A stretch of DNA of 64,000 nucleotides, from NCBI GenBank assembly GCA_965242865.1, contig CBDETK010000013.1, positions 5,152,001-5,216,000 on the forward strand, given 5' to 3'. This document shows, piece after piece, positions 1 to 64,000 of this stretch; the stretch's first letter is position 1; every line of letters begins with the position of its first letter. A model generated the notes under the pieces. It was not told the origin of the DNA and did no database searches. It worked only from the letters and a program-made list of their open reading frames with translations. The DNA comes from Candidatus Latescibacterota bacterium. GTDB lineage: Bacteria > Latescibacterota > UBA2968 > UBA8231. A program made the translations under genes and the position numbers.

Positions 1-2586
1 CTGCCGGTAGAACTGGTTGGCCAACTGGACATTGGAGTCGTGATAGCCGATGCGGGTCGCGCAAATCATGCCGATCACGCCTCCATCCTCCTTCAGCAGA
101 AGTCCCTCCGGCATGGAGAGGCGCACGGGATCGTCGAACACCCCAACTTGACTCGCAGCCGTAAAAAACAAGGGCAGGCGCCCGCCGTTGTTGAGCTTGT
201 CCAAATCGCGGGAAAGCAAGAACAGGCTCTCGTGGGCCAAGCGGTCAAAGCTGCCGTGCCCCAAGTAGGTCAAAATGAGCGAGCCTTTGTTGAAGAGCCG
301 GATAAACTCGTCCCGCGCCCGCGGCTTTTCCCGCCCCTCTAGGGGGAATTGGGCGACGTAGAGCTTGGTCAGGTCTAGCACTTCGGGCAGGACGCGCCGG
401 GCCATGTATTCGCTATCGCGGATGAAGAACGACTCGACCCGGCTCGGCTTGTCGCGATTGAGCAAATCGTCCGAGACCAGCAGCACTTGGCTCTGCCAAG
501 GCCCCCATTCGGGGGCGTGGTCGTAGGCGATGATTTTGTCGGCCAGCGCGTCGGCCGAGGCCGCCGTCTGCACCGGCAGCCGACCAATGGCCAGATCGGG
601 GTACAAATCGCCGCCCACCACGCGCGTGTACCATTCGTCGTATGTGCTGTCGCCGTCTTGGTATGCTGGGATCCAATTGCCTTGGCTAATGGACGAATTG
701 TTCTTGTAGTCGTACGAGCCGTCGCCCACCAAGGCCACGAACATGGGCGCGGGCTCCCAGTGCTCAACCGCGTACGCGAGAAAGTTGCGGATCGCGGCCG
801 GGTCCAACAGCCCGCCGGAAAATTCGTCGTAGATGTCTTGCACGTCGATCGCCACCGCTTGCAGGGGCCGGCCGAAGCGGTCGTCGGCCGCTCGCCAGCG
901 CGCCAAGCGCTCGGCCGCGGCGCGAAAATCGCGGTGGTAAATCGCCACCCAATCGGCTCCCCGCGCCGCGGTTGCCAAGTGGCCGGGCGCGTCGAGCTCG
1001 ATTCGCACCGGGCGCTTCCAAGTGCCGCCGACCGCGTACTGGCGCGGCTCATCCCCGGGCCGATCCTGAAACGCTACAACCCCGTCTTGCGCTCCGTACT
1101 CAAAATCCACGACCTCGGCCAACCCGGCCGAGACCTCAAAGACGCGCGGCCGCTCGGCGGCAAAACCAGTGAGGCGAAATTGGGTGGGGCCGGTCAGCGG
1201 ATAGGTGAAGAGCAATTGACCGCGCTCGGCGACAAAGCCGCGGCTGTACTCCACTTCGTACCAGTCGAAGCGGGCCGGACTACCCGAGTGAACGATCCCC
1301 AAGTGGTTCAGCCCCTCCTGCGCTCCGAGCGCGGCCCACAGCGTATCGGATGCAACGTAGCGCTGGTCCGGCAGTTCGTCTGGGGTAAAAGCCACCGTGC
1401 CGATGGCCGCTTCGTTCCAGCGCACCGAAAACCGCGGCTGCGCCTCCGAGCTCCTGATAAAACCCAAGCGCACCGCCACCGGCTCGGGCGCGGCCTGCCG
1501 CACCACCACCGGAAAATTGCGCGCATTGCCGCGAAAATCCTCCCAGTACCAAGTGTAGCCAGACTTGATGCTAAAGAGCTGGGTGAGGACGAACTGCTCG
1601 GCTTCCTCGTGGATTCGCACCCGATAACTCGTGGGCTGCTGCGGGTCGGACGCGGTTAAGGCGCCGCTCCGCTGCTCGGGCCGCCGCCCTGCTACCCCAC
1701 CGCCAAACCCCAGCCAGTACGCGTTCTCGTGCGTGTAGAGGTTGTGCCGATATTGGAATGAGCGGCTAGCTGGCGCGTATTCCCAGCGGCTGACCGGCTC
1801 GGCCCAAAACAAGACGAAATCGTCCGCGTCCAAGCGGCCATCGCCCCCGTCTTCTACGGCCAAGCCCACTTCCGACAGGGCCTGGGGCGGGGCCGCCTCG
1901 CTGAGGGACAAGGCTTTGCCGCCGCCGTAGTACAGGCGCAAACTCGCCGGCTCGATGTCGCCGAGCGCCACCCCAGCGGCCTCAAGGTCGGCGCCCGATA
2001 TGCGGTACATTCCCTCTTCCAAGACGAAGACCCGCAGCCACGTTCCGCTCTGCAACGCGGCCTTGGGTGCCGGACGTTGCTTGAGCGGCAAGCGCCAGTT
2101 CCGAGCTTGCTCGGGATTGACGAGCACCCCTCGGTAGAATGCTTCGCCCCAAGGGTCGGCAACGCGGGTGCCGCCGCTGCCGGTCACGTGTAAATCAACC
2201 ACGATGCGATCGTACAGGGTGCGCGTTCCGTCCGCCTCGACGCGGGGAGCAAACGCCACCGGAACGACGCGCTGACGCCGCGCAAAACCGCTCTCCCCGA
2301 GGACGACCGGCGCGGGCGTGGGCGCGTCGTCAGCCGCCGCGCGGTCGGTCCGCGCCACGTGGGCTTCGACCAACTCCAAGCGAACCTGTCCATCGCTGGG
2401 GACGCCGATTAAGGCACTGCGCCCCTGCTCCAATTCTCGGCCTTCGGGACGCCAAACCAACCGCACGCGCTGGGGCGTCTGCTCGCTTACGTGTAGCTCG
2501 GCTAGGGCCGCACTCCCGCAAAAAAGCGCGAGCACCCAAAAACAGCATTTGAATCGTATGAAAGTGGTATAGGTGGGATGGGTCAT
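1..2586 (-). CDS. C25 (gingipain/PorU-like) peptidase-family protein, 3' end outside window
   Basis: Absent from the ORF track because there is no stop in the window. Manual translation of both ends, which share one frame: ATG at 2586 gives a signal-peptide-like start (MTHPTYTTFIRFKCCFWVLALFCGSAALAE); the window edge reads KGSLILTYLGHGS...LPLFFTAASQVGVFDDP...GGVIGMICATR, typical of the C25/PorU catalytic region. Confidence 0.8.
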   Translation of the reverse strand, partial: MTHPTYTTFIRFKCCFWVLALFCGSAALAELHVSEQTPQRVRLVWRPEGRELEQGRSALIGVPSDGQVRLELVEAHVARTDRAAADDAPTPAPVVLGESGFARRQRVVPVAFAPRVEADGTRTLYDRIVVDLHVTGSGGTRVADPWGEAFYRGVLVNPEQARNWRLPLKQRPAPKAALQSGTWLRVFVLEEGMYRISGADLEAAGVALGDIEPASLRLYYGGGKALSLSEAAPPQALSEVGLAVEDGGDGRLDADDFVLFWAEPVSRWEYAPASRSFQYRHNLYTHENAYWLGFGGGVAGRRPEQRSGALTASDPQQPTSYRVRIHEEAEQFVLTQLFSIKSGYTWYWEDFRGNARNFPVVVRQAAPEPVAVRLGFIRSSEAQPRFSVRWNEAAIGTVAFTPDELPDQRYVASDTLWAALGAQEGLNHLGIVHSGSPARFDWYEVEYSRGFVAERGQLLFTYPLTGPTQFRLTGFAAERPRVFEVSAGLAEVVDFEYGAQDGVVAFQDRPGDEPRQYAVGGTWKRPVRIELDAPGHLATAARGADWVAIYHRDFRAAAERLARWRAADDRFGRPLQAVAIDVQDIYDEFSGGLLDPAAIRNFLAYAVEHWEPAPMFVALVGDGSYDYKNNSSISQGNWIPAYQDGDSTYDEWYTRVVGGDLYPDLAIGRLPVQTAASADALADKIIAYDHAPEWGPWQSQVLLVSDDLLNRDKPSRVESFFIRDSEYMARRVLPEVLDLTKLYVAQFPLEGREKPRARDEFIRLFNKGSLILTYLGHGSFDRLAHESLFLLSRDLDKLNNGGRLPLFFTAASQVGVFDDPVRLSMPEGLLLKEDGGVIGMICATRIGYHDSNVQLANQFYRQ

Positions 2587-2694
2587 TTTAGCGTTTTTAA
2601 GGTCATTCCAAGCCCCTTTTTTGTCAAGGGCGTCTCGCCTTGACTTATCGGCTCAGGGCCGCTACGTTTAATAGTTTCTTACAGGGAGAAACTC

Positions 2695-2922
2695 ATGGCC
2701 AGACAATGCAGCCTGACCAATGTTAAGGGCCTAGTTGGCAACAACGTCAGCCACTCGCAGCGCAAAACCAAGCGCGTCCAACAGCCCAACCTCATCAAAA
2801 AGCGCATCTTCATTCCCGAGAAAAACCGCACCATCACCCTCCGCCTGACCGCCCGCGCCCTGCGTACCTTAAACAAAAAAGGCGTCTATCAGTTCCTGAA
2901 AGAAAAGGGAATCGAGGTCTGA
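2695..2922 (+). CDS. rpmB: 50S ribosomal protein L28
   Basis: MARQC...GNNVSHSQRKTKR..PNL motif; RBS AGGGAG upstream. Confidence 0.97.
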   Translation: MARQCSLTNVKGLVGNNVSHSQRKTKRVQQPNLIKKRIFIPEKNRTITLRLTARALRTLNKKGVYQFLKEKGIEV

Positions 2923-2938
2923 GCGGCCCGGCGCGCTT

Positions 2939-4054
2939 ATGAACCGAGGCGACGACCCAGCCGACGCCATCCAAGAGCGAGTTCGCCAAGCCCTAGCCGA
3001 AAACGCGGCCTTAAAAATTTTTGCCGGCCGCACCAAGTCCTTTCTCGGACGCCAACACCCCGGCATCCCCCTCGACCTCTCCGCTCTAACCGGCATCGTC
3101 AGCTACGAGCCAGACGAGTTGGTCCTAGTGGCCCGCCCGGGCACCAAGCTGAGCGAAATAGAAGCCCTGTGCCATAGCGAAAACCAGTACTTTGCTTTTG
3201 AGCCGCCCGCTTGGGGTGCGGCTGCGACCATCGGCGGCACTGTGGCCTGCAACCTTTCGGGGCCGCGGCGGTTCAAGATGGGGGCCCTGCGCGATCACTT
3301 GCTCGGCGCCGAGTTGATCGACGGTCGCGGCGAGCGAATTCGCACCGGCGGCAAAGTCGTCAAAAACGTCACCGGGTACGATCTAGCCAAAGTGCTGGCC
3401 GGTTCCTTTGGAACGCTAGGGGTGCTTACCGAGGTTTGCCTCAAGGTCTGGCCCCGCCCGCAAACCCAAGCCACCCTGTTCATGCACCGGCCAACGCCGG
3501 CCGCGGCGTTGGAGCGAATGCTCAACTGGGCCGCGCGGCCCCTCCAAATCACCGGCCTAGTCTGCGATGCCGACCGGCTAGCCGCCCGCGTCGAAGGCCC
3601 GACGCCCGCGGTGCGGCAGCAGCTAGCCGCGCTGTGCGCCGGAGAATCCGCCGAGTCCGAGGTCGTGGAAGAAGCCGAATCACAAGCCTTTTGGCGGTGC
3701 TGGCGCGAGCTCGAATGGCTGATGCCGGCCACCGGCCAACAGCGCTGGCGCTTTTCTGGGCCGCCGACCCAGATGGTGCCGCTCATGGAAGCCTTAAAGG
3801 CCGAGGGGCTGAGCCGCTGGGGGTTGGACTGGGCCGGCGGCCTGCTGTGGGCACTTTTGCCGGTAGCCGCCCCAGCCGCCCGCTTGCACCGCACCGCAGC
3901 CCACCACCAAGCCCTCGGCTGGCGCTTTGCCGCCGACGAACGCAACGAAGACGCCTTTACCCCGCTCCATGCCGGCGCGGCGCGCATGAACCAAATGCTC
4001 AAGCGCGCCCTTGACCCCCAAGGCATTTTCAACCGCGGCAAACTGTACGCCTAA
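2939..4054 (+). CDS. glcE: Glycolate oxidase FAD-binding subunit GlcE-like
   Basis: GIVSYEPDELV, ATIGG..ACNLSGPRR, GGKVVKNVTGYDL, GSFGTLG, LDPQGIFN motifs. Confidence 0.85.
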   Translation: MNRGDDPADAIQERVRQALAENAALKIFAGRTKSFLGRQHPGIPLDLSALTGIVSYEPDELVLVARPGTKLSEIEALCHSENQYFAFEPPAWGAAATIGGTVACNLSGPRRFKMGALRDHLLGAELIDGRGERIRTGGKVVKNVTGYDLAKVLAGSFGTLGVLTEVCLKVWPRPQTQATLFMHRPTPAAALERMLNWAARPLQITGLVCDADRLAARVEGPTPAVRQQLAALCAGESAESEVVEEAESQAFWRCWRELEWLMPATGQQRWRFSGPPTQMVPLMEALKAEGLSRWGLDWAGGLLWALLPVAAPAARLHRTAAHHQALGWRFAADERNEDAFTPLHAGAARMNQMLKRALDPQGIFNRGKLYA

Positions 4055-5235
4055 TAGAGCTCGCCCGGGCGATAGTCTGGCGGGGGCATTTTTTGTTCGC
4101 TGAGCCACAAGGCCCGCCCGACCCGCGCCTGAACGTACTGGTAATCATAGCTCGCATCTGGAGCGGCGATGTTGCCTTGGGACGGATACTGGGCAATCGC
4201 CTCCTCGACGAGGTCCACGCCCAGCCCAGGCGCATCCGGCACCGCAATGTGGCTATCGACGACTTGGGGTTGGCCGCTCATCACCTCGTAGCGCTGCGGC
4301 ACATCGTCGGCTAAGTGCTCCAAGATCAAAAAGTTGGGCACCGTGGCCATTAGGTGGACAGCCGCCATTTCGGCCACCGGCCCCAACGAGCCGTCGTGCG
4401 GCGCGACCGTGCAGTAGTGCGCCTCGGCCAGCGCGGCGATCTTCTTCATCTGCCACAAGCCCCCAGCGCGGCCCGTATCCGGTTGAACCACGTCGATGAT
4501 TTCGCGCTCGATCAATTCCCTTACGCCCCAAATCGTGGCGTGGCGCTCGCCCGCGGCAATGGGAATATCTACGGCAGCGGCCACGCGAGCGAGGGCGTCG
4601 ATGTTTTCAGGGGCTACGGGATCTTCGTAAAACAGCAGGTCGTAGTCTTCGAGCGCGTGCCCCAAGGCCATGGCGTCGCGCGTCGTCAGCCAAGGCGGCC
4701 CGTGGACATCGACCATGAGATCTACCGCGTCGCCGACCTCTTTGCGGATGGCCGCGACCGTTTCGACGCAGTTTTTGATTCCCCCCGTCTTGATCGCCGT
4801 GTAGCCTTGATCGACCAAGGCGCGCGCCCGCTCTGTCTCGTGCGCGTGGGCATAGACCCGCACCCGGTCGCGCATCTTGCCGCCCAAGAGGTTCCACACC
4901 GGCAGCTCAAGGGCCTTGCCCTTGAGGTCCCACAGGGCCATCTCAATGCCCGTCATGGCGCCAGAGCCGACAATGCCGGTCATGCCGTGCCCCATCATCG
5001 CCACTTGCATCTTGCCCCACAGTCGCTCGATGTGGAAGGGGTCCTCGCCGATCATCAAGGGCGTCAGGTCGTGGATGGCCGTTTCAACGACGCGCGGCCA
5101 GCCCGACGCCTCGCCCACGCCGTACAGGCCGGCGTCGGTCTCGACCTTGACGAAAAGCCAGTTGCGCGCCGACCAACCGCTCGCCTGCGGAGGCGCACAC
5201 TGCATCAAATAGGTCTTGATCTGGGTAATTTTCAT
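4051..5235 (-). CDS. Mandelate racemase/muconate lactonizing enzyme family (galactonate dehydratase-like)
   Basis: NWLFVKVETDAGLYGVGE, EMALWDLKGK, VDVHG, YEDP, AGER, QPD motifs; ATG at 5235 follows GGGAG. Confidence 0.9.
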   Translation of the reverse strand: MKITQIKTYLMQCAPPQASGWSARNWLFVKVETDAGLYGVGEASGWPRVVETAIHDLTPLMIGEDPFHIERLWGKMQVAMMGHGMTGIVGSGAMTGIEMALWDLKGKALELPVWNLLGGKMRDRVRVYAHAHETERARALVDQGYTAIKTGGIKNCVETVAAIRKEVGDAVDLMVDVHGPPWLTTRDAMALGHALEDYDLLFYEDPVAPENIDALARVAAAVDIPIAAGERHATIWGVRELIEREIIDVVQPDTGRAGGLWQMKKIAALAEAHYCTVAPHDGSLGPVAEMAAVHLMATVPNFLILEHLADDVPQRYEVMSGQPQVVDSHIAVPDAPGLGVDLVEEAIAQYPSQGNIAAPDASYDYQYVQARVGRALWLSEQKMPPPDYRPGELY

Positions 5236-5317
5236 AGCGGTCTCCCGGTGTTGTGATGGAGCGACAAGTATAAGCCAGCGCACAAAATCAATCCATTGCC
5301 GGCCCGCCGAGCGCAAA

Positions 5318-5346
5318 TTGACAGGCATATTTTCAATACTTAGCTT
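5318..5346 (+). promoter_or_regulatory. Sigma70-type promoter for the ispB-apbE-secDF cluster
   Basis: TTGACA-N17-TAGCTT. Confidence 0.6.
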
Positions 5347-5378
5347 CTAAATTTTCTATTTAGCAAGATGCCTTGCTC

Positions 5379-6347
5379 ATGGATCCCTGCATAGGTCTGA
5401 TCGATCAAGAACTGGCCCAGTTTGAAAGGCGGCTCAACGCCGAGCTCAACGCCGATGTCGAGCTGGTCCACGTCATTGCCCGCTACATGGCTACCCTCAA
5501 GGGCAAGCGCCTCCGGCCGGCCCTTACCTTGCTCGTGGCAAAAGCGTCCGGCGACTGGAACGATCAGCTCATCGACTCGGCCGTGGCGGTCGAGATGATT
5601 CACGCCGCCACGATGGCCCACGACGACGTCGTAGATTCAGCGACCGTGCGCCGAGGGCGCGAGACGGTCAACGAGCGCTGGAACGGGCAGACCGCCGTCC
5701 TCATGGGCGATTTTCTCCTCGCGCGCGCCCTGCGCCTGCTGATCGAGGTCGGCAATTTACAGGTCCTGAGCGTCGTCGCGCACGCCACCGAGCGGCTGAG
5801 CATGGGCGAAATATTCGAAATCCAGATCGGCACTCAGTGCGATACACGCCAAGCGTCGTACTTTGCCATGGTCAGCGACAAGACCGCTTCCCTGATCTCG
5901 GCCGCAACCCGAATCGGCGCGATCTTGGCCGGCGCGTCGGACGAGGTCGTCCAATCCATGGGGTGCTACGGCGAATCGCTCGGCCGCGCCTTCCAAGTCG
6001 CCGACGACATTCTCGACCTCACCAGCGATCAGGCCACCATGGGCAAGCCCGTCGGGCACGACCTGCGCGAAGGCAAAATCACCTTGCCCTTGATACGCGC
6101 CTTACAGCAAGCACCCGCGGCCGCACGGGCCGAGATGGAGTCCCTGTTGGCCGGGCCGGACAAGGACGAAGCCGAATGGAAGCAGATCGTGGCCTTTGTC
6201 GAGCAGTACCGAGGAGTCGCCGCGGCCACCGAAATCGCGCACGAATACGCCACCCACGCTCAACAATGTTTAGAGGTCCTGGCCCCTTCCCCAGCGCGCG
6301 CCGCGCTAGAACGAGCCGTCCAGCTCGTCGTCGAACGCAGCAATTGA
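5379..6347 (+). CDS. ispB: Polyprenyl (octaprenyl-type) diphosphate synthase
   Basis: GKRLRP, HDDVVD, FQVADDILD, GKPVGHDLREGK motifs. Confidence 0.9.
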   Translation: MDPCIGLIDQELAQFERRLNAELNADVELVHVIARYMATLKGKRLRPALTLLVAKASGDWNDQLIDSAVAVEMIHAATMAHDDVVDSATVRRGRETVNERWNGQTAVLMGDFLLARALRLLIEVGNLQVLSVVAHATERLSMGEIFEIQIGTQCDTRQASYFAMVSDKTASLISAATRIGAILAGASDEVVQSMGCYGESLGRAFQVADDILDLTSDQATMGKPVGHDLREGKITLPLIRALQQAPAAARAEMESLLAGPDKDEAEWKQIVAFVEQYRGVAAATEIAHEYATHAQQCLEVLAPSPARAALERAVQLVVERSN

Positions 6348-6359
6348 CACGGCCAGTTC

Positions 6360-7403
6360 ATGCTCAAGCGCAGTCTGCTGGCCATCGGCGGTTTGGCCGT
6401 GGTGCTGTACTTTCTGCCGGCCCCCCAGCCCGCCGCGCCCGTGAGCGCAGACCGCCTCTTGTTGGGAACCCTCGTCACGGTCAAGCTCTACGGCGACGAA
6501 GCAGTGGTTCGCCCACACCTAGAAGCGGCGTACGCGGAAGTCGCCCGCGTCGATTCGTCGATGAGCCCCTACCGCGCCGACAGCGCATTGCGGCGGCTCG
6601 AACAGCAGGCGCGGCTCGCTCCAACGCGCGGCTCACCCGGGCTGATTGCGGTCTTGGCGCGCAGCCAGCATTTCGCCGCGTTGACCGATGGCGCCTTTGA
6701 CTGCACGATGGGGGCGTTGACGAGCCTGTGGAATTTTCCCGCTGCGGTCACACCGCCGGCCCCGGGGCAGATTGATTCGGCCCGGGCGTTGGTCGGCTAC
6801 GAAGCATTGGAGGTTGCGGCCCAGCCCCAGACGGTTCGGCTCCACCGGGCCGGGCTGCGGTTGGATTTGGGGGCCGCGGCCAAAGGCTACGCCGTGGACC
6901 GAGCGGTCGCGGCCATGCGGGCATTGGACGTGGAGGCCGGCGTGATCGAGGCCGGGGGCGACATTCGCTATTGGGGCACAAAGCCGGACGGGCGGCCTTG
7001 GCTTTTTGGGGTCCAGCACCCGCGCTCCCCAGCGCAATACATCGCCGTAGAGGACCTCGGGCTCGCGGCGATTGCGACCTCGGGCGATTACGAGCAATAC
7101 TTTGACTGGGAAGGCGTGCGCTATCACCACTTGCTCGACCCCAAGACCGGCCACCCCGCGCGGGCGAGCATCAGCGCCACCGTGTGGGCCGCGACAGCTC
7201 TGGACGCCGACATTTTATCCACCGCGGTCTTCGTCCTAGGGCCAGACCAAGGGCTCGCCCTCGTCGAGGGCCTACCGGACGTCGAGGGCTTCGTTTTCTT
7301 TCAGCGAGACGGGCAGCTCATGCACCGGGCCTCGAGCGGAATGCAGGGCCGCTTTCGCTTTTGCAATAGCAGCAAACTTTCGCCGGGCTGCGCCCGGCAA
7401 TAG
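6360..7403 (+). CDS. apbE: FAD:protein FMN transferase ApbE
   Basis: DLGAAAKGYAVD, ATSGDYE, YHHLLDPKTG, ADILSTA motifs. Confidence 0.92.
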   Translation: MLKRSLLAIGGLAVVLYFLPAPQPAAPVSADRLLLGTLVTVKLYGDEAVVRPHLEAAYAEVARVDSSMSPYRADSALRRLEQQARLAPTRGSPGLIAVLARSQHFAALTDGAFDCTMGALTSLWNFPAAVTPPAPGQIDSARALVGYEALEVAAQPQTVRLHRAGLRLDLGAAAKGYAVDRAVAAMRALDVEAGVIEAGGDIRYWGTKPDGRPWLFGVQHPRSPAQYIAVEDLGLAAIATSGDYEQYFDWEGVRYHHLLDPKTGHPARASISATVWAATALDADILSTAVFVLGPDQGLALVEGLPDVEGFVFFQRDGQLMHRASSGMQGRFRFCNSSKLSPGCARQ

Positions 7404-7421
7404 CGGAGTAAAGACCACTCT

Positions 7422-9953
7422 ATGAAACGCAACCGAAAACTCGTGCTAATCCTAGCCCTGATCGCCGTCGCCGTGTACTACCTGCTGCCAAGCGTGGAAT
7501 TTTACAGCATGACGGACGACGAGCGACAAGACTTAGGGCTAAAGTCCCCGGACCAGCTCGTCGATCTAAAAAACCGCTCGCTCAACTTGGGCCTCGACTT
7601 GCAGGGCGGCATCCACCTCGTCCTAGAGGTCAAGACCGAGGAGCTAGAGCCGCAGGCAGCCCAAGACGCGGTCGCCCAAGCACAGGAAGTCATCCGCAAC
7701 CGCATCGATCAGTTTGGGGTGGCCGAGCCGACGATCCAGCGCCAAGGCGACAACCGCATCATCATCGAGTTGCCCGGCGTCCAAGACGTCCAGCGCGCCA
7801 AGGACCTAGTGGGCCAGACCGCGTTGCTCGAATTCCAACTCCTCGAACCTGTAGAGGACCGCACTCGCCTAATCCAGCGCTTGGACCAAGCCCTAGCCCC
7901 GCCAGAAGAAGGCCAAGCGGAAGCAGACGCGGAAGAAGACCTCCTCCTTTCCTCCGCGCCAGACCGCGCTCCCCTCTCCTCCATGCTCAGCCCGGCCGGC
8001 GAAAACCTCACGGTCTCGGGCCGCGACTTGCCGCGCGTCAAGCGCTTACTCAACGCCCCAGAGGCCCAAAAGCTCATCCCCGCCGACGTGGAGTTTCTCT
8101 TCTCTAGCAAGCCCGCCGGCACGGCCGGCAATCCGTTCTACTTCCTCTACTTGGTGCGCAAAAAGCCGGAGATGACCGGGCACATGATCCAAGACGCCTT
8201 TGTCTCCATCGGCCAAGTCGTCGAGTACATGGGCCAGCCCATCGTCAATTTCTCGACCACCGACGAAGGGGTGCGGCTCTTCAGCCGCATCACGGGTTCA
8301 CACGTCGGCGAGCGCATGGCCATCGTCCTCGACGAATCAGTGTACTCGGCCCCGGTCATCCAAAACAAAATCAGCGAGGGGCGCGGCATCATCACCGGCA
8401 GCGGCACCCAAGAAGAGGCCAAAGACCTCGCCATTGTGCTGCGGGCCGGGGCGCTGCCGGCCGAGGTAGAGATCATCGAGGACCGCACGGTCGGCCCCTC
8501 GCTGGGGCGCGACTCAATCGAGCAAGGCAAGACCGCGGCGATCTACAGCATGGTGCTGATCGCGATCTTCATGGTCCTCTACTACCGCGCATCCGGGCTG
8601 ATCGCCAACTTCGCCCTCTTGCTCAACATGCTCTTCATCATGGCGGTGCTAGCCGGTTTTCACGCCACCTTGACCTTGCCCGGCATCGCCGGCATCATCC
8701 TGACCATCGGCATGGCCGTCGATGCCAACGTGCTGATCTTCGAGCGCATCCGCGAAGAGCTGCGCTCGGGCAAGACCATTCGCGCGGCCATTGATTCCGG
8801 CTATGGCCACGCGCTCTCGGCCATCATCGACGCCAATGTGACCACGTTCCTAGTCGGCATCGTGCTCTATCAGTTCGGCACCGGGCCGATTCGCGGCTTT
8901 GCCCTGACCTTGTGCATCGGCATCATCTCCAGCCTCTTTACGGCCTTCTTTGTAACCCGCACCATTTTCGAGCTGATCACCCGCAAGTCGCAGCAATCCA
9001 CCCTGAGCATCGGGCCGGTCGCGCTGTTTGCCAACCTGAAAATCCGCTTCCTCTCGCTCCGCAATATTGGTTTCGGCACCTCGGCCGCCGTGCTGCTGCT
9101 CGGCGTCGTCTCCATTTTGGGCATCAACGGCATCCGGCAGGGTATTGACTTTGCCGGCGGCACCTTGCTGGAGCTGCACTTCGACCCGGCCGTACAAGTT
9201 GAGGACATCCGCAGCCAGTTGGGCCGCGTTCCCGTGGGCGATGCCGAGATCGACCTGAGCAAGAGCGAGATCAAGCAGTTCGGCTCGGAAAACGACATCC
9301 TCATCCGCGTCAGCGAGAGCGGGGCCGGCACCGAGGTGGCCGACGGCATTATGGGGGTTCTCAAGGCTGGATTTGCCGCCAGCATCGAGGAGATGGAGTG
9401 GATTCGACGCCAAGAAAAGGTCGGGCCGAAAATCGGCAGCGAGCTGAGCAGCGCGGCCGTACGCGCGGTGTTGGTGGCACTGGGGCTGATTCTGATTTAC
9501 ATGGCTTGGCGCTTCCACCGCTTCCTCTACGGAATTGCCGCGGTGGTCGCGCTTTTCCACGACGTGCTCATCACCCTCGGGTTGCTCTCGTTCTTCGATA
9601 TTGAGATTACCCTCGCGGTGGTCGCGGCCCTGCTGGCCATTGTCGGCTACTCGCTCAACGACACGATCGTGGTCTTCGACCGCATCCGCGAGAATTTACA
9701 CACCGTCCGCCGACAGGGGTTTGAGGGCACGGTCAACCAGAGCATCAACGAGTGCCTGAGCCGCACCCTGATCACTTCGGCAACCACCTTATTGGCGGTG
9801 CTGGTGCTGATGATCTTTGGCGGCGAGGTCAACCGCGACTTCACGATCACTCTGATGATCGGCGTCGTAGTCGGCACCTATTCGTCTATATTCGTCGCCA
9901 GTCCCGTGCTTTACCTAGGCCACCAGCGGGCCGCGGCCAAAAAGACCGGGTAA
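7422..9953 (+). CDS. secDF: Fused protein translocase subunit SecDF
   Basis: LGLDLQGG, RIDQFGVAEP, GMAVDANVLIFERIREE (SecD), then GIDFAGG, GYSLNDTIVVFDRIREN (SecF). Confidence 0.97.
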   Translation: MKRNRKLVLILALIAVAVYYLLPSVEFYSMTDDERQDLGLKSPDQLVDLKNRSLNLGLDLQGGIHLVLEVKTEELEPQAAQDAVAQAQEVIRNRIDQFGVAEPTIQRQGDNRIIIELPGVQDVQRAKDLVGQTALLEFQLLEPVEDRTRLIQRLDQALAPPEEGQAEADAEEDLLLSSAPDRAPLSSMLSPAGENLTVSGRDLPRVKRLLNAPEAQKLIPADVEFLFSSKPAGTAGNPFYFLYLVRKKPEMTGHMIQDAFVSIGQVVEYMGQPIVNFSTTDEGVRLFSRITGSHVGERMAIVLDESVYSAPVIQNKISEGRGIITGSGTQEEAKDLAIVLRAGALPAEVEIIEDRTVGPSLGRDSIEQGKTAAIYSMVLIAIFMVLYYRASGLIANFALLLNMLFIMAVLAGFHATLTLPGIAGIILTIGMAVDANVLIFERIREELRSGKTIRAAIDSGYGHALSAIIDANVTTFLVGIVLYQFGTGPIRGFALTLCIGIISSLFTAFFVTRTIFELITRKSQQSTLSIGPVALFANLKIRFLSLRNIGFGTSAAVLLLGVVSILGINGIRQGIDFAGGTLLELHFDPAVQVEDIRSQLGRVPVGDAEIDLSKSEIKQFGSENDILIRVSESGAGTEVADGIMGVLKAGFAASIEEMEWIRRQEKVGPKIGSELSSAAVRAVLVALGLILIYMAWRFHRFLYGIAAVVALFHDVLITLGLLSFFDIEITLAVVAALLAIVGYSLNDTIVVFDRIRENLHTVRRQGFEGTVNQSINECLSRTLITSATTLLAVLVLMIFGGEVNRDFTITLMIGVVVGTYSSIFVASPVLYLGHQRAAAKKTG

Positions 9954-9987
9954 CGCCCGCTAGGCGTAGGCGGGGCCACCGCTCGCC

Positions 9988-11187
9988 ATGAAAACAATCG
10001 TCGTAGCGGTCTTTGTCCTGCTCTTGATTTACTACGGGCCGCTGCAAGATCGCGCCAGTCCCTTTGACCCGGCGTGGATGCTGGGTGCTCTGGCCCTGTT
10101 GGCCGTGGCGGGCGGCCAACTAGCACAGGCGATTCGCCTGCCGGCCTTGGTGGGGTGGGTCGGAGCGGGGATGCTGCTGGGCACTGGCGGCTTACAACTC
10201 GTCGATCTAGGCGCGTTCTCCCTACACCCAATGCTCTTTCTCACGGCGGGCCTCGGGGTCGGGTTCCAAGTGGGCCTACACGTGATATGGCCAACGCATG
10301 GTTGGCGCGTGCTCGGGCTGGCCGCGGCCGCGACCGCGCTGATCTTCGCGGCCGTAACAACGGCCACTGCCTTGCTCGGGCTGCCTTGGCAGCAAGCCGT
10401 ACTCCTCGGCGCACTAGCCAGCTTGTGGGGGGCCTTCACCGGCAAACCAGAAGTGGGCCGGCGCACCGCGCTGCTGCTGGCCGTGCTGGGGACGGGCTGC
10501 GCCCTCGGGGCGTTGGGCGGAGCAGCGATCGCGCTAAAGGCTGGGGCCGCCGGATGGGTCGGGCGCGTCGGCCTGTCGCTCGGGGCCGGCATCGGGCTGG
10601 GGTTGGGGTTGCGCTTCTTGGGGCGGTTCGCTGTCCCGAGCGCGCCCCTAGTCTCCGGCCTAGTGGGGGCTTTTTTCTTGGCGGCCCTCGCGCTCGATGT
10701 CCTCGGGCTGATGGCCCTGCCCTGCGGGCTGGTGGCGGGACTCGTGCAGGACAAACAGCAAAGCCGCCGCGTGCGGCTCCTGCTGCACCGGGGTGCGCCG
10801 GTAGCCTTCATGCTCTTTTTCGCGCTGGTGGGCACCTCGCTCGATCTCGGCGCCCTGTGGCCTCCCGTGCCCAAGCTGTACGAGGTGGCACTCGTGCTAG
10901 TGACCGTGCCCCTAATTTTGCGGGGGCTGGCCCCGATGGCGTACCAGCCATTGCCCGGCCCCCATCCGGGCTTTGGCTGGCGGCTCCTGCCGCGCGGCGC
11001 GTTGCTATTTGAATTGTTCTACGGCCCGCACGGACTGGCCCCCTACGTAGAGGCCGGAGGTCTGTTGGCGCAGGTCGTGCTCTTGGACATTCTCTTTTCG
11101 ACCCTGCTTTTCTCCTCCTTGGCATCGCTCGTAGATGCAAGCCTTTTGGCCGCGGCCCGGCCCTCAGAAAATGGGGCGGCGGCCTAA
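9988..11187 (+). CDS. Polytopic membrane protein, divergent cation:proton antiporter-like
   Basis: About 12 hydrophobic segments; RLPALVGWVGAGMLLG and FMLFFALVGTSLDL resemble CPA2-type segments. Confidence 0.55.
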   Translation: MKTIVVAVFVLLLIYYGPLQDRASPFDPAWMLGALALLAVAGGQLAQAIRLPALVGWVGAGMLLGTGGLQLVDLGAFSLHPMLFLTAGLGVGFQVGLHVIWPTHGWRVLGLAAAATALIFAAVTTATALLGLPWQQAVLLGALASLWGAFTGKPEVGRRTALLLAVLGTGCALGALGGAAIALKAGAAGWVGRVGLSLGAGIGLGLGLRFLGRFAVPSAPLVSGLVGAFFLAALALDVLGLMALPCGLVAGLVQDKQQSRRVRLLLHRGAPVAFMLFFALVGTSLDLGALWPPVPKLYEVALVLVTVPLILRGLAPMAYQPLPGPHPGFGWRLLPRGALLFELFYGPHGLAPYVEAGGLLAQVVLLDILFSTLLFSSLASLVDASLLAAARPSENGAAA

Positions 11188-11248
11188 GGGTGCTGCTCGT
11201 TTGTGTCCAACTAGGCCGAGTTGTATCTTTGATGGTTTGGCATTTTGC

Positions 11249-11941: not shown

Positions 11942-11957
11942 TTCACAGGAGACAATC

Positions 11958-12251: not shown

Positions 12252-12253
12252 GC

Positions 12254-15418: not shown

Positions 15419-15447
15419 CAATCAGACGACGCGAAGAGAGGAAAAAA

Positions 15448-17266: not shown

Positions 17267-17310
17267 CCCTCGTCACCGTTGAGGCTGTATCGCTACATTG
17301 CGTTGGGGAA

Positions 17311-44115: not shown

Positions 44116-47100
44116 CTACACCGCGACCCTCGTCTCCGTATCCCCCGCTGTGAGCGCGTTCATATAGGCCAGCGTCATATCGCGGGTGCGGTAGGTGCCG
44201 AAGGCGGCTTCGTCGTCGCGGCGGACGATGGGGAAGGTGTCGAGGATGTATTCGGCGTCGTCCCGCGATAGGCAGTAGAGGTGGAAGTAGAGCGCGTCGA
44301 GGCGGGCACGTAGGTGGCGGCGTTCTTCTTCGTCCCATAAGAAGGGCTCGCCATCGTAGCCGAGGTCGCGGGCGAAAGGGGCCATGTCGTGGGCGGTGTA
44401 TGTGAGGCGGAGGACGTGGTCGCGGACGAGGTCGCGGGCGGTTTTATGGCCGAATTTTTGGTCGTATGCGTCGGGGGCGAGGACGGGGAGTTGCTCGACG
44501 ATGTACCAATTCAGGTGCGTGCCTTGAGCCTTCTGTCTTGCAACAAAGTCCACACATATCGCATTCAGGTTGGCCATGAGATACGCGGTGGCCAAGGGGT
44601 CGGCACTGAGGAGTAGAGGAATAGTGTTTCCATACCCCGCCCATGGGACGATGGAAGCAATGACTGTTCTCTCATTTGTAGGATTGGTGATGTCGCGGAA
44701 GCCCAAGGCGTACCCGCGACTTTGGGGCAAAGTTTTCTCTACGTTGTGGGCTGGCACCCAATACTGTGTTTGGGGCAGGAACCGGGGGTCGGCGTGTTGC
44801 GCTTGGGTTACTTCCTCGCTGAGGTACGGGTTGTGTGTGCTCTCTGGGTTGACGCGAACCGAGTTGGCGCGGTGGTCAAAGTGCCAAATCATCCGGCCTT
44901 GATACAGCGGCAAATACAGTTCCGCGCCTCTCTTCCAACGGTTGCCTTCGATGGGATAGAAACCTTCCGCATCGAGTTGTTCGGCCGTTCTGAAGAGATG
45001 AGAGTCATTGGTCATGTGAAACATTGTGTTATACCGCACCGGCCACACCTTGCGCTCTTTTCTTCCCGCACGATTCACCAACACCGGATACCACTCGTAG
45101 ATATATCGCGTGATCTCCGCGTCCTTCCGGCGGCGGAACACGGGCGCGGTGCTGGTATTCGGATTCACGCGGGCGAAGTCGTCTGGCGTCAATGGAAAGC
45201 AGCGGTCCTCGTCGTGGACTGTTTTTGTGTCGTGGAGGAAGAACGCGCATTCGGCGTGGTCGAATCGGCGCTCCTCGCCGCCCAAGATGAGGGCGCAGAA
45301 TTTGAATGAAGCGTGAACATCCTTGAAGAAAATTTTCTTGTTCTCAAAATCAAACAGACCGCCCACTTGACCTTTGGTCGAAACCGACTTGAAGAACCGG
45401 GCCGCGGTCTTGTCGGCGTAAATGCCCGACGGCGTCAACAAGCCAACAAAGCCATCCGGCTTAATCAGGCTCATCGCCCGCTCGACAAACAGCGAATAGA
45501 GGTTGATGTCGCCGCCACTGAGCAACGGATAATCGCCAGACGCCCGAACCAAGCGCCCGAGCGTGTCGGCTCGTTCCTTGGCTGCGTCGAACTCAGCCGC
45601 CAAAGACGATCTCTGATCGCGCAGATTCTGAATGCCTTTTCGTCGCGCCGCCGCTGTCGGCGCTAGCGCGAGTTCCGGGGCGCGGCTGGCAAACCACTCG
45701 ACTTCTTGCAACTTGATGCGATCCCACGGCGGATTGCCAATAACCGCGTCAAAGCCGCCCTGCGGACAGCGGTCTTGCCATTGATGCCACACCCCGGGAA
45801 AGGCCACCTCCCAATGCAGAAAGCCTTCCTCGTTAGCAATTTTTCGCGCCGCGTGCCACAACTCGGCAAACCGCGCATCGTCGTCCTCCGGCCCACGCGC
45901 CAATAGCTCATACGCATCCGCCGGATGCTGGCCGATCGTCGTGCCCAGCGGCCCCTCAAACGCATCGCGTTCCTGCTTCTTCATGCCAGCCGTCAGCCAA
46001 CGCCAACCGCACAAAAAATTGAGCAAGCCGCGAAGGTCGGCGGTCGTCTTCTCCACCCCGTCGAACAGCGCGGCAGACGCCTGCACCTCGGCCACATCCG
46101 CGTCGGACATCTCCTCAATGCGCTGCATCCCTTCGGTGGCCATCTCCGCCCCGGCAATGGCACTGCCAGCGAACATCCCACCGAGCCGATGCAACTCATC
46201 GGTGGCGTCGCGCACCCGCAAGCCGACCAGCGAGTCGCCGCCGCGCAGGTGGTGGTCGAGGAAAGACAGCGGCGCACCCACCGTAAAGCTGTGCAGCCAC
46301 AGCGACACTTTGGCCAACTCGACCGTCAGCCGATTCTTGTCAACCCCGTAGATGCAACGCTTGAGCACCATGCGGCGAATGATGGCTTGGTCGGTAAGCT
46401 GAGCCTCGTCCAAGACCCAATTCGATGCGGTGGCTCGCTGGCGAATGTCGTCCCGAATTGCCGCCACGCGCCCCACCAGCGGCGACGTGTACTCGCCGTC
46501 GAGCCATTCGGGAACCGCGGGAACGCGCTCGATCAACTCGGCGATGTAGTCCGACAGGAAATCTACGGCCGTGACGAGGAAGTGGCCGCTGCCCATGGCC
46601 GGATCCAAGACCTTGAGGTCCAAGACAGCCACCGCCGGATCAAACCGCTCAAGCTCAACGCGCCGTTCCTGCTTGGATCGGCGGTCGCTTTGGAGCGCCG
46701 CCGCCTTTTTTGCAAAAGCATTGAGCCGCTCGTCGGCCAGCGGTCGCAAGGTCCGCTCGACGATCAGATCGACCAGTTCCTGCGAGGTATAAAAACTGCC
46801 GCTGTCCTTGCGAGCATAGGGATTGAGGCGAATGGAAATGTTGCCGTCGGCGCGCACTGGCTCGCGCTCCAGCAGCCGCTCGTAGATCGAGCCAAGCTGT
46901 TGCACGGACATGTCGCGGTAGTTGACAAAGCGGCCTTCGACGTGGCTCAGGTCATGGATGATCGGCGCGAGGGGCGCGTCGGCGAGGCGAGTGGTTTCCA
47001 ATAGCGGCGCGGCATCCGCCGCGAACAGCCCGCCGTTGTAAGGCGGCAGCCCAATGGACTCGTCGCCTTGGTTGATGAGCTTGAACAACGTCGTCAGGTG

Positions 47101-48078
47101 GTCGTAATAGTTCGTCGCAATAGCCGAGAACGTGTCGTTCGCCGCCATCCGCCGCGCAATGTGGTCGCGGACGGGCTTGCGCAAACCATAATCGTCGTAC
47201 CGGGCATCGTTGACCGGCAGCAGATTGCGGTCTTCGGCGTAGAGCACAAACAGCAAGCGATAGAGGAAAATCAGCGCGGCATCCCGGCTCTCGGCGAGGG
47301 TTTGCCCCGACGCCTCAGCTAGCGCATCGACGAGACGGGGAAACACGCGCTCAAACACCACCCCAGAAAGGTCGTGCGCGACCTGTTCCTCATAGCGGCG
47401 ACCCTCGGCCAACGCCGCTTCGAGGAACGTGGTCGTGGCCCCAGCTTGGAGCGCGAAGGACGCACGGCAAAACAGCAGGTGAAAGACGCGGAGATCGTCT
47501 TCCCTGCCGGGCGCGAGCAATTCGCCCAAATCGACTTCAAAGTAGCCGCTGGCACGCGGCCGGGCGCGGTAATCGTAGAGCCGCCAGACCCGGCCATTGG
47601 TCAGAATGCCCCAGCGAACGCGCCCTTCCGACGCGATCTCTGCTGTCGCCAAGTACCGGAGGATTTGCCCGTGCGGCGACCCGCTCCGCTCCCGGCTGTC
47701 AAGCGAAAGCCCAAAGCGTTTGCTCTCTTCAACGACCGCCGCGTAGCCAAGGCGCGCACCGGCATTGCGCTCGGCCGCAGCCTGCTGCTTGGCATCGGCG
47801 TCGGCGAAAAGCAGGTGATCGGGAATGTCCTCGTTGCCCGCTCCGCTCTGCTGCGGCAAATAATCAACCCAGCCGAGCAACGCCAAAACCGGACGGATCA
47901 AGTCCTGCTCGGTCGCCGCTTCGTTGGGCTCTTGGGAACGGCTGAGCGCGTCGTACCGCAGTCGGACGCCATCCCGAAACGCAGCAAACGCCTCCGGCTG
48001 AGCACAAGACGCTTGCCACTCGGCCGTGGCCTTTATGCCGTCGGTGAGGAAGTAATGAGTGAACAGTTGGCCGGGCAT
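44116..48078 (-). CDS. Type IIG restriction-modification enzyme (fused endonuclease-amino-MTase-TRD)
   Basis: IPD...VEESK nuclease motif, WGILTNG, LGSIYERLL, RKDSGSFYT, DPAMGSGHFL, GNPPW, C-terminal TRD-like region. Confidence 0.9.
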   Translation of the reverse strand: MPGQLFTHYFLTDGIKATAEWQASCAQPEAFAAFRDGVRLRYDALSRSQEPNEAATEQDLIRPVLALLGWVDYLPQQSGAGNEDIPDHLLFADADAKQQAAAERNAGARLGYAAVVEESKRFGLSLDSRERSGSPHGQILRYLATAEIASEGRVRWGILTNGRVWRLYDYRARPRASGYFEVDLGELLAPGREDDLRVFHLLFCRASFALQAGATTTFLEAALAEGRRYEEQVAHDLSGVVFERVFPRLVDALAEASGQTLAESRDAALIFLYRLLFVLYAEDRNLLPVNDARYDDYGLRKPVRDHIARRMAANDTFSAIATNYYDHLTTLFKLINQGDESIGLPPYNGGLFAADAAPLLETTRLADAPLAPIIHDLSHVEGRFVNYRDMSVQQLGSIYERLLEREPVRADGNISIRLNPYARKDSGSFYTSQELVDLIVERTLRPLADERLNAFAKKAAALQSDRRSKQERRVELERFDPAVAVLDLKVLDPAMGSGHFLVTAVDFLSDYIAELIERVPAVPEWLDGEYTSPLVGRVAAIRDDIRQRATASNWVLDEAQLTDQAIIRRMVLKRCIYGVDKNRLTVELAKVSLWLHSFTVGAPLSFLDHHLRGGDSLVGLRVRDATDELHRLGGMFAGSAIAGAEMATEGMQRIEEMSDADVAEVQASAALFDGVEKTTADLRGLLNFLCGWRWLTAGMKKQERDAFEGPLGTTIGQHPADAYELLARGPEDDDARFAELWHAARKIANEEGFLHWEVAFPGVWHQWQDRCPQGGFDAVIGNPPWDRIKLQEVEWFASRAPELALAPTAAARRKGIQNLRDQRSSLAAEFDAAKERADTLGRLVRASGDYPLLSGGDINLYSLFVERAMSLIKPDGFVGLLTPSGIYADKTAARFFKSVSTKGQVGGLFDFENKKIFFKDVHASFKFCALILGGEERRFDHAECAFFLHDTKTVHDEDRCFPLTPDDFARVNPNTSTAPVFRRRKDAEITRYIYEWYPVLVNRAGRKERKVWPVRYNTMFHMTNDSHLFRTAEQLDAEGFYPIEGNRWKRGAELYLPLYQGRMIWHFDHRANSVRVNPESTHNPYLSEEVTQAQHADPRFLPQTQYWVPAHNVEKTLPQSRGYALGFRDITNPTNERTVIASIVPWAGYGNTIPLLLSADPLATAYLMANLNAICVDFVARQKAQGTHLNWYIVEQLPVLAPDAYDQKFGHKTARDLVRDHVLRLTYTAHDMAPFARDLGYDGEPFLWDEEERRHLRARLDALYFHLYCLSRDDAEYILDTFPIVRRDDEAAFGTYRTRDMTLAYMNALTAGDTETRVAV

Positions 48079-62608: not shown

Positions 62609-62616
62609 TTTACACC

Positions 62617-63543
62617 ATGAGCAAGAGCCTTCTTCCGCTTGCACTCGCCCTGTTGCTGACCGGGGCGGCCCACGCGGCCTCGCGCTACGCCGGCGAGTTC
62701 CTCGGCTTGGGCGCGGGCGCTCGCGCTGCGGCCTTGGGCAGTGCTTATGTGGCTCTAGCAGACGACGCTACGGCCGGCTATTGGAATGCGGCCGGCCTAT
62801 CCGCCCTCCGCGACCGCCAAGTTCACCTGACCCATGCCGAGCACTTCTCCGGCCTCGTCCAGCGCGATTTTGTCGCCATCGCCCGGCCGGGTCGCCTGTT
62901 GCACGGCATGGCCCTGAGCTTGGTTCGCCTGGGCCTTGACGGCATTCACTTTACCGAACTGCCGGACCCGCAGCAGCCCCCCAGCACCGACAACCGCCCG
63001 CTCATTGCCTCGACCGAGCAAAGCGCCGATTACGCCCTGTATCTGTCGGGCAGTCGCCGGCTCGGGGCGCGTCTATCGCTCGGGCTCAGCGCCAAGGCCA
63101 TTTACCGCCACGTCGCCTCCATCAACGCCTACGGCTTCGGCCTCGACCTCGGGGCACGCTACCAGTTGAGCCACCAGATCGCGCTAGCGGCTAACGTGCG
63201 CGACGCGGTCACCACGCCCATCGTCTGGAATACGGACCGCACGGACCGCATCCGGCCCTCGCTGCTGCTGGGCGTCGCGTACGCCGTCCCCGTGGCCGGG
63301 GGCCAGACCACCGCCCTCCTATCCACCCGCTCCGGCGGCGATACAGCGGCCGCCGACGTCCCGCTCAACGCCGGCCTAGAATACCGCCACCCTTACATCG
63401 CCCTGCGGGCCGGGCTGGAGGAAGGCCGCCCGTCCTTTGGGCTGGGGCTTACTCCCCACCGCAACCTCGACCTCGACTTCGCCTACTTGCAGCACGATGC
63501 GCTCGAAGCAACCTACCAGTTGTCGGCCGGCTTCCGCTTCTGA
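62617..63543 (+). CDS. PorV/PorQ (UPF0164)-like outer-membrane beta-barrel
   Basis: Signal peptide; FLGLGAGARAAALGSAYVALADDATAGYWNAAGL motif; C-terminal aromatic ...SAGFRF. Confidence 0.8.
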   Translation: MSKSLLPLALALLLTGAAHAASRYAGEFLGLGAGARAAALGSAYVALADDATAGYWNAAGLSALRDRQVHLTHAEHFSGLVQRDFVAIARPGRLLHGMALSLVRLGLDGIHFTELPDPQQPPSTDNRPLIASTEQSADYALYLSGSRRLGARLSLGLSAKAIYRHVASINAYGFGLDLGARYQLSHQIALAANVRDAVTTPIVWNTDRTDRIRPSLLLGVAYAVPVAGGQTTALLSTRSGGDTAAADVPLNAGLEYRHPYIALRAGLEEGRPSFGLGLTPHRNLDLDFAYLQHDALEATYQLSAGFRF

Positions 63544-64000
63544 GCAACCCCGCGTCGGCTACGTAGCCCTAACCGGCCGCCCCAACGCGGGCAAATCCAC
63601 CCTCTTCAACGCCTTCTTGGGGCAGCGACTCTCCATCGTCACCGCCAAACCGCAGACCACTCGCAGCCGCATCCTCGGCATTCTCACCCGCCCCCAGAGC
63701 CAGATAATTTTTTTGGATACGCCGGGCCTGCTCAACGCCTCCTACAAGCTGCACGAGACCATGCTGCACCAGATCGACCAAGCCGCCCGCCAAGCCGACC
63801 TAGTCTTGCTGCTGTTCGACGCGACTCGCCCCAAGGACCGCAGCGCATTGGTGCAGCACTTCCTAGCGCACACCCGCGCCCCCGTTTTGGCCGCGCTCAA
63901 CAAAATTGACCTAGTCCAACCCACCCAGCTAGACGCCTTGCAAAAAAGTCTGGCGGACGAGTTCGGCATCGCAAGCCCGATCCCGGTTTCCGCGCGGCGC
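63497..64000 (+). CDS. era: GTPase Era, 3' end outside window
   Basis: Manual translation GYVALTGRPNAGKSTL...SIVTAKPQTTR...FLDTPG...NKID. The start is uncertain; the nearest in-frame ATG at 63497 overlaps the upstream gene. Confidence 0.9.
   Translation, partial: MRSKQPTSCRPASASEQPRVGYVALTGRPNAGKSTLFNAFLGQRLSIVTAKPQTTRSRILGILTRPQSQIIFLDTPGLLNASYKLHETMLHQIDQAARQADLVLLLFDATRPKDRSALVQHFLAHTRAPVLAALNKIDLVQPTQLDALQKSLADEFGIASPIPVSARR

Follow-up and report, generated by a model that had tools for sequence, protein, structure and literature searches.

Why does a long stretch of bacterial DNA hold next to no copies of one five-base word? The question is raised by a 64,000-nucleotide window of the genome of a Candidatus Latescibacterota bacterium (genome G000, contig C13, positions 5152001-5216000; "the window" below is this whole stretch), in which a first-pass annotation found by eye about a dozen CCWGG sites (CCAGG or CCTGG) and, from base composition, expected ~240. 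Our count is 15 (7 CCAGG and 8 CCTGG), with all six positions named by the annotation among them, and recomputation from the window's base counts gives an expectation of ~226. As argued below from sequence comparison, the likely cause is methylation-driven decay of CCWGG in a clade without very short patch (VSP) repair, probably helped by restriction avoidance. The surviving sites of the window are as follows.

CCWGG sites, window 1..64000: 1881, 4226, 6278, 15984, 16007, 17191, 29808, 31512
CCWGG sites, continued: 38326, 41712, 51488, 54515, 57889, 62024, 62928

The shortage extends over the genome (5.997 Mb in 13 contigs, 93.6% complete), which contains 2,428 CCWGG sites. Expected numbers of 5-mers were derived from base composition, from Markov models of orders 1-3 and from a synonymous-codon shuffle within genes, the last applied to 4,072 open reading frames (ORFs) that were called by a simple codon-score script, cover 83% of the genome and supply the coordinates of the two window ORFs given here. 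The observed/expected ratio (O/E) is 0.12 by composition, 0.16, 0.15 and 0.19 by Markov orders 1, 2 and 3, and 0.108 by codon shuffle (1,925 coding sites observed versus 17,849 expected). A ratio near 1 had been named as the outcome that would speak against depletion; genome-wide, the five null models return 0.11-0.19. CCWGG is the most depleted 5-mer of the genome, the second-lowest standing at 0.68. In sequence outside the script-called ORFs, which served as the non-coding test, O/E is 0.16-0.17. On the main contig, C13 (5.6 Mb), sites are spread uniformly at 0.345 per kb, with at most 14 in any 10-kb segment. An origin in codon usage, in dinucleotide bias or in DNA that is foreign or mis-binned, without any site-specific process, could appeal to the general frequency of TTG (24% of Leu codons) and CAA (44% of Gln codons) and to enrichment of the 4-mers CCAA, TTGG and CTTG in the genome. 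Such an artefact is refuted, however, by a depletion that persists under Markov order 3 and under the codon shuffle, is just as strong outside ORFs, needs both flanking bases, is uniform over 5.6 Mb and is absent in outgroups of similar G+C; we give it almost no credence.

Relatives were obtained by a DNA search with window positions 1-20000, which returned syntenic loci in 30 genus genomes. At 84-92% identity there are 26 loci, every one of them CCWGG-depleted (O/E 0.06-0.48). Four loci at 70-75% identity are undepleted (O/E 1.2-1.9); their genomes, G031, G015, G017 and G016, are of similar G+C and served as outgroups, with 44-118 kb sampled from each. Searches of G015, G016 and G017 turned up no C5-methyltransferase. 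CCWGG depletion is thus limited to one clade. Within it, 56 of 90 alignment columns with a surviving CCWGG are singletons, compared with 32-35% in two control classes, and only 1 of 90 is common to at least 18 genomes (control classes, 12-14%). Surviving sites are therefore mostly young, a pattern that fits ancestral erasure followed by mutation-driven regain and could also reflect ongoing removal.

In coding DNA, the loss of CCWGG has visibly reshaped codon choice, reducing C·CTG·G and C·CAG·G (dots mark codon boundaries) by 10-15 fold. The annotation held that codon use depends on the flanks, and Leu and Gln choice does depend on both flanking bases: C·CTG·G accounts for 2.3% of Leu codons versus 36% for G·CTG·G, and C·CAG·G for 6.8% of Gln codons versus 65% in the flanking-context comparison. 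The five codon examples that it drew from one gene are all there and in frame.

7422..9953, plus strand: ORF of 843 aa, named secDF by the annotation, with atc cta gcc, aac ttg ggc, gtc cta gag, gcc caa gac and gac cta gtg

Depletion differs among the reading frames that CCWGG can occupy.

C·CTG·G: O/E 0.06
C·CAG·G: O/E 0.11
xCC·TGG: O/E 0.10
xCC·AGG: O/E 0.25
CCA·GG: O/E 0.40
CCT·GG: O/E 0.51

The key test pits against each other two synonymous C:G-to-T:A exits from C·CAG·G that are alike in codon-preference cost: NNC to NNT, which alters the outer C, and CAG to CAA, which alters the inner C of the other strand. Codon-pair tables took identical pairs before A, C or T as an external baseline; they replaced a quasi-independence fit, since with two-column tables such a fit does not tell which margin has shrunk. 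Where a 2-fold (NNY) codon is followed by Gln and then G, the departures from baseline are -1719 for C·CAG·G, +1494 for C·CAA·G and only +23 for T·CAG·G. After a 4-fold codon they are -3630 for C·CAG·G and +2951 for C·CAA·G, with -212, +330 and +298 for T, G and A before CAG·G. Overall, C·CAA·G accounts for 81-87% of the C·CAG·G deficit, and T·CAG·G for no more than ~1%. With Leu after a 4-fold codon, C·CTG·G is short by 6052 and G·CTG·G by 147, and the gains remain in the C row (TTG +2025, CTC +2135, CTA +421, TTA +417). The proportion of C-ending preceding codons is unchanged. Since the outer-C exits are unused and the C-ending share is constant, the outer cytosine is essentially never the changed base. 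Before TGG, likewise, NCC falls to 4.1% (54-60% before TGC/TGT) and NCT rises to 53% (15-17% before TGC/TGT). In the CCW·GG frames both inner-pair transitions are nonsynonymous, whereas a change to CCC or CCG, the favoured Pro codons, would offer an escape at no cost; Pro-Gly CCW·GG is the least depleted context, as decay through the inner C would predict.

Aligned sites place the changes at the same position. From 147 kb of outgroup DNA BLAST-aligned to G000 we took 396 CCWGG sites with well-aligned flanks and, as controls, 4349 sites of eight 5-mer classes; this BLAST-anchored comparison superseded a MAFFT alignment of oriented loci, which gave 24 usable sites. Only 4 of the 396 outgroup CCWGG sites (1.0%) are kept in G000, versus 1217 of the 4349 control sites (28%; Fisher p = 7e-47). 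Single inner transitions number 0.333 per CCWGG site and 0.095 per control site, a 3.5 times difference. Outer transitions (0.043 per CCWGG site versus 0.060 per control site), outer transversions (0.063 versus 0.083) and centre changes (0.050 versus 0.077) show no such excess, and inner versus outer transitions yield an odds ratio of 4.9 (Fisher p = 9e-12). The annotation had proposed a check on the single-base neighbours of CCWGG, equal enrichment of which would instead have indicated site avoidance; they proved unequal, the changes being confined to the inner C:G pair. Products at the aligned outgroup CCWGG sites are CTTGG (71), CCAAG (46), CTAGG (13) and CCTAG (2). A weak signal of the same kind is seen within the clade, where 61 inner and 22 outer transitions occur among 176 single-step variant types at CCWGG, compared with 105 inner and 95 outer at the control CCSGG.

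A dcm-like C5-methyltransferase had been predicted by the annotation, and one with a Dcm-like recognition domain is encoded outside the window, ~435 kb past its start (window-equivalent 435175-437693). It belongs to an adjacent, intact pair in which the nuclease lies directly downstream.

G000:C13:5588461-5589693, minus strand: Dcm-type C5 methyltransferase, 410 aa (PF00145, E 7.7e-81, profile positions 1-320/324)
G000:C13:5587175-5588560, minus strand: EcoRII-type nuclease, 461 aa, intact (EcoRII-N and EcoRII-C domains)

The methyltransferase is 47.6-47.7% identical to E. coli K-12 Dcm (query sequence from NC_000913.3) over residues 34/35-452 of 472, and its recognition-domain block (RTLSARYYKDG..EIL and neighbours) matches Dcm at 26 of 40 positions. 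The C5-methyltransferase catalytic motifs FAGIGG, PCQ, ENV, QxRxR and GNAV are visible in the translation. The nuclease has the two-domain build of the Type IIE enzyme EcoRII, matching the full profiles of PF09217 (EcoRII-N, the N-terminal effector domain, E 4.6e-54) and PF09019 (EcoRII-C, the C-terminal catalytic domain, E 1.8e-62), as well as the solved EcoRII structure 1NA6 (E 1.5e-103). The pair itself has 0 CCWGG sites and a G+C of 53-55%, versus 60.6% for the genome. Among nine full-length C5-methyltransferase matches in the genome, this one alone is close to Dcm, the others having at most 36% identity. A candidate for the source enzyme envisaged by the annotation, a CCWGG-type methyltransferase, is therefore present in the genome, though not as a lone methyltransferase: it is half of an intact restriction-modification (RM) pair, and selection against self-restriction may for that reason contribute. 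The annotation's surmise that VSP repair is lacking probably holds too, as Vsr (PF03852) was detected in control genomes and in 0 of 31 genus genomes, G000 being 93.6% complete, and tblastn with E. coli Vsr gave no match in G000.

These components suggest how the sites could have been lost. The clade would long have hosted an EcoRII-type RM pair, whose Dcm-family methyltransferase, judged by homology, would methylate the inner CCWGG cytosine at its 5 position in both strands. Deamination would turn 5-methylcytosine (5mC) into thymine, and without Vsr the T:G mismatch would stay, converting the site to CTWGG or CCWAG; some 85-90% of sites would have been removed in this way over the clade's lifetime. 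Coding DNA would admit only synonymous routes, namely CAG to CAA, CTG to TTG, CTG to CTA (and onward to CTC) and NCC to NCT before TGG. Self-restriction avoidance probably adds to the effect, given that the lineage also avoids many 6-bp palindromes, and any such selection would act on mutations that arose mostly at the methylated cytosine. In vivo methylation of CCWGG is an inference on our part, as are fixation of the changes by deamination and not by selection and the role of this pair, and no other enzyme, in each lineage.

The limit to synonymous routes would account for the products that are found, CCAAG and CTTGG piling up and CTAGG and CCTAG failing to, as the latter involve stop codons and the rare CTA. 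CCAAG/CTTGG has an O/E of 2.34 by composition, 1.27 by Markov order 3, 1.64 by codon shuffle and 1.34-1.72 outside ORFs, and its gains of 9,888 compare with ~15,900 missing coding CCWGG sites (codon shuffle). CTAGG/CCTAG stands at 0.42 by composition, 0.83-1.14 by Markov models, 1.07 by codon shuffle and 0.90 outside ORFs. The annotation had claimed enrichment of all four products; the claim holds for CCAAG/CTTGG under every null model and fails for CTAGG/CCTAG, which is raised only relative to the outgroups. There, O/E is 1.4-1.7 for CCWGG, 0.68-1.5 for CCAAG/CTTGG, 0.23-0.66 for CTAGG/CCTAG (order 1) and 0.29-0.50 for CTAG. Measured against these near relatives, both product classes are thus raised in the depleted clade. 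Nor is CTAG common in G000 by the null models, as had been stated: its genome O/E is 0.45 by composition, 0.81 at the top Markov order and 1.09 by codon shuffle. It too is raised only against the outgroups, at ~0.8-1.2 in the depleted clade versus 0.29-0.50. Bhagwat and McClelland are said to have linked VSP repair in 1992 to low CTAG in E. coli. The ~8:1 asymmetry between the product classes at the aligned sites is to be expected in genes, given the stop codons that C·TAG·G and CC·TAG create and the rarity of CTA (7.5% of Leu codons).

Several observations weigh against decay as the explanation. Inner transversions are also up at the aligned sites, at 0.136 versus 0.064 per site, and about one-third of the lost C·CTG·G is now C·CTC·G, a transversion that needs a second step via CTA. 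Both the raised inner transversions and the CTC gain would fit such a second step, off the poor codons CTA and NCT. CTAGG/CCTAG is unenriched even outside ORFs (0.90), where codon constraints cannot explain the asymmetry; the low CTAG baseline, reflected in outgroup CTAGG/CCTAG values of 0.23-0.66, may be the reason. The aligned-site test takes its polarity from the outgroup state only, and sites and genomes are non-independent. The palindromes avoided by this clade include ones that 5mC decay cannot explain (TTTAAA 0.12, GTATAC 0.14), and avoided 6-bp palindromes likewise vary 2-3 fold between frames. Finally, the pair occurs in only 5 of 31 genus genomes (G000, G036, G038, G012 and G034), the cognate methyltransferase is lacking in most of the clade though 26 of 26 clade loci are depleted, and presence of the pair does not predict depth of depletion. 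The palindromes and the patchy pair each lead to a rival account.

Selection alone would have EcoRII-type cleavage of an undermethylated chromosome, or of kin DNA, purge the sites with no mutational role for methylation. An intact EcoRII homologue is indeed encoded in the genome, and 6-bp palindromes are avoided 3-16 fold: GTGCAC (0.06), TTTAAA (0.12), GTATAC (0.14), CATATG (0.15), AAGCTT (0.16), TTCGAA (0.16), GTCGAC (0.17), CAGCTG (0.21) and others, some of them without cytosine. This avoidance is common to the clade relatives (L113-L152) and mostly absent in the four outgroups (L093-L112), which argues that selection against restriction sites is effective in the lineage. According to PMC2770665, EcoRII cuts only with a second site, and fewer sites would therefore be protective. 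Transition-rich change is not peculiar to CCWGG either. Runs X1, X5, X19 and X20, some labelled sponge metagenome, contain window positions 1-20000; contigs of X1 cover 30 of 30 bins of this segment at ~1.5% difference, transitions make up 255 of its 337 strain-level differences (76%), and exits at the palindromes CTGCAG and GTCGAC are transition-rich too. What selection alone handles poorly is position. The outer-C exits are unused although they are synonymous and similar in cost (T·CAG·G +23 versus C·CAA·G +1494), neither outer nor centre changes exceed control rates at the aligned sites, and CCW·GG is only 2-2.5 fold depleted even though CCC and CCG are the favoured Pro codons. Where 16 depleted 6-bp palindromes were followed at 429 outgroup sites, by contrast, single changes spread over both third codon positions (0.24 at folded positions 1/6, 0.20 at 3/4). 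Spacing of the surviving CCWGG sites also resembles that of control words: relative to an exponential it is 1.19, 1.17 and 1.10, with means of 1.22, 1.14 and 1.09 for 60 control words, and no deficit of close pairs was found in this comparison. We therefore hold selection as sole cause to be unlikely.

The patchy distribution bears on whether the pair is the agent. Alternatively, another CCWGG enzyme, such as an unrecognised C5-methyltransferase, one that is mobile or phage-borne, or one since lost, did the work and the present pair is incidental. The most depleted relatives, G041 (0.07) and G007 (0.11), do not carry the pair, and genomes have 1-12 PF00145 matches each, with specificities mostly unassigned. 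For the depth comparison, which drew on ~80 kb per relative genome (36 kb for G013), O/E is 0.15, 0.33 and 0.35 in carriers and 0.07 (G041, the closest relative), 0.11, 0.19, 0.25, 0.27, 0.28, 0.32, 0.36, 0.36, 0.41 and 0.47 in non-carriers. Singleton CCWGG counts in carriers are few (2, 1, 1 and 1). No Dcm-type recognition domain was recognised in G041, which does have a C5-methyltransferase (L154) beside a 244-aa ORF without Pfam or PDB match. Compared by eye, however, the G041 enzyme and that of G039 share recognition-domain sequence with the type that adjoins a HaeII-family nuclease in G000, and so are probably not CCWGG enzymes. The 244-aa ORF (L154 765-1499, minus strand) overlaps the methyltransferase end and may be an uncharacterised restriction endonuclease; at this locus G039 has the methyltransferase without that ORF.

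The history of the pair also speaks for it as the agent. In four genomes (G000, G036, G038 and G034) it sits beside the same TIM-barrel gene, non-carriers have the same locus without the pair, and G013 retains a nuclease fragment. In the syntenic-locus tree carriers are scattered and span the clade's basal split, on which G000 itself lies. Between carriers, the methyltransferase genes share 88.7-93.1% nucleotide identity and the nuclease genes 83.3-87.8%, compared with 86.8-90.7% at the core locus, and the identity ranking is the same for pair and core (G000 most distant, G038-G012 closest). A shared locus and divergence parallel to the core argue for vertical descent with repeated loss and against recent transfer. 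The annotation's idea of a long-resident methyltransferase thus finds backing in a shared flank across the basal split and core-like divergence. For decay driven by this pair to be compatible with depletion in genomes that mostly lack the enzyme, repeated losses of the pair must have followed the decay. Because an inherited, clade-deep EcoRII-type pair fits the age of the depletion, and G041 and G007 would owe their state to a recent loss of the pair, recovery being slow, a different agent appears improbable to us.

The repeated losses raise a further idea, which we put forward tentatively and with less than even confidence. An RM system of this kind may erase its own target: with no Vsr to buffer it, the methyltransferase would have pushed CCWGG close to extinction in the ancestor of the clade; as sites became sparse, a two-site nuclease would have lost most of its bite on kin DNA and most of its cost as well, the pair would have been lost again and again (leaving it in 5 of 31 genomes), and a clade-wide ghost footprint would outlive the enzyme and go on shaping codon choice. 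If this were true, motif footprints could reveal extinct methylation systems in uncultured lineages.

The locus of the pair (L056; G000:C13:5585399-5590628) is a variable spot. A T5orf172-domain ORF adjoins it, the pair's far side bears a second copy of 125 aa from the N-terminal end of the TIM-barrel gene, and a segment of ~280 bp (L056 5831-6108) has several copies per genome in relatives.

Decay of a methylated word is familiar from vertebrate CpG, where methylated C becomes T, the target is depleted and TpG and CpA are enriched. The present case shares the depleted target and the enriched transition products (CTWGG/CCWAG), and differs in that the target is a 5-bp bacterial RM word, the decay shows itself through codon constraints and most descendants no longer have the enzyme. 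The likeness to E. coli Dcm and EcoRII is one of protein sequence (48% identity to Dcm, a conserved recognition block and both EcoRII domains); the difference is Vsr, which E. coli has and which was not found here. The outcome is also opposite: CCWGG is ~26% over-represented in E. coli K-12, according to 10.1101/070839, and 5-9 fold depleted here. The same source reports that Vsr-less bacteria tend to under-represent C5 targets and that in Vibrio cholerae, without Vsr, the VchM target RCCGGY is ~30% under-represented. The proposed cause is the same for VchM (C5 methylation, 5mC deamination and no VSP repair), whereas the depletion of 81-89% seen here comes with a clade-wide phylogenetic contrast and a signature that is clear in the products. 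Methylation motifs of the Bacteroides fragilis group are depleted without matching enrichment of transition products, according to PMC10333322; in G000, CCAAG/CTTGG gains cover 9,888 of ~15,900 missing coding sites. With palindrome avoidance the case has in common that G000 avoids many 6-bp palindromes and possesses a cognate CCWGG nuclease, and is set apart by the confinement of CCWGG changes to the inner pair, those of palindromes falling over the third positions of both codons.

We found no report of a comparable CCWGG collapse in the open-access literature. The process is known; what makes this a strong new example is the effect size, the clean positional signature, the natural controls and the persistence after enzyme loss. 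Decay of methylated motifs in bacteria is usually weak or ambiguous, and here 81-89% of a word is lost through one position. The natural controls are of two kinds, sister lineages with normal CCWGG in which no C5-methyltransferase was found and carriers beside non-carriers. Consequently the clade is suited to measuring 5mC mutagenesis without VSP repair, to separating mutation from selection in restriction-site avoidance and to asking how long a footprint persists after its enzyme is lost. Binning by codon usage or k-mers, and detection of horizontal transfer, should allow for the missing word in this clade, where contigs C10 and C3 stand out.

Those two contigs, of 24 kb and 17.5 kb, have near-normal CCWGG densities (3.8 and 2.7 per kb), and C1 and C8 are intermediate at 1.2-1.4 per kb. 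All four may be recently gained mobile DNA or mis-binned sequence.

Other methyltransferases of the genome were set aside as sources. An L001-type C5 methyltransferase (36% identity to Dcm) was rejected for CCWGG, as it adjoins a frameshifted HaeII-family nuclease. Such an arrangement is found at G000:C13:631097-633100, where a C5-methyltransferase of low G+C (45.7%) precedes a HaeII-family nuclease split over two frames, in what looks like a decaying RM pair, with a SPPY-motif methyltransferase ORF just downstream. The RM-like gene noted within the window by the annotation does carry NPPW, according to a motif scan, and was judged not to be the CCWGG source, a role that the annotation had called unlikely.

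44116..48078, minus strand: ORF of 1320 aa with NPPW at residue 781

A second NPPW ORF of ~1320 aa (G000:C13:5594582-5598550, plus strand) lies ~5 kb from the EcoRII-type pair. Both look like fused restriction/amino-methyltransferase enzymes, and one of them might be behind avoidance of the asymmetric word GTAGAC/GTCTAC (0.11). A base-flipping nuclease that speeds deamination was considered and dropped, given that PspGI is reported to protect cytosines in its cognate CCWGG (PMC1557792).

An 18-bp tandem repeat at L183 12660-12772 (G000:C13:2387660-2387772), in a locus that is a mosaic, is one of the two spots of the chromosome where CCWGG is densest. The repeat, presumably a young expansion, codes for YNQGQG units within a minus-strand ORF of 897 aa. 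Seven CCWGG sites lie in it in the C·CAG·G frame, and a flanking unit has CAA instead.

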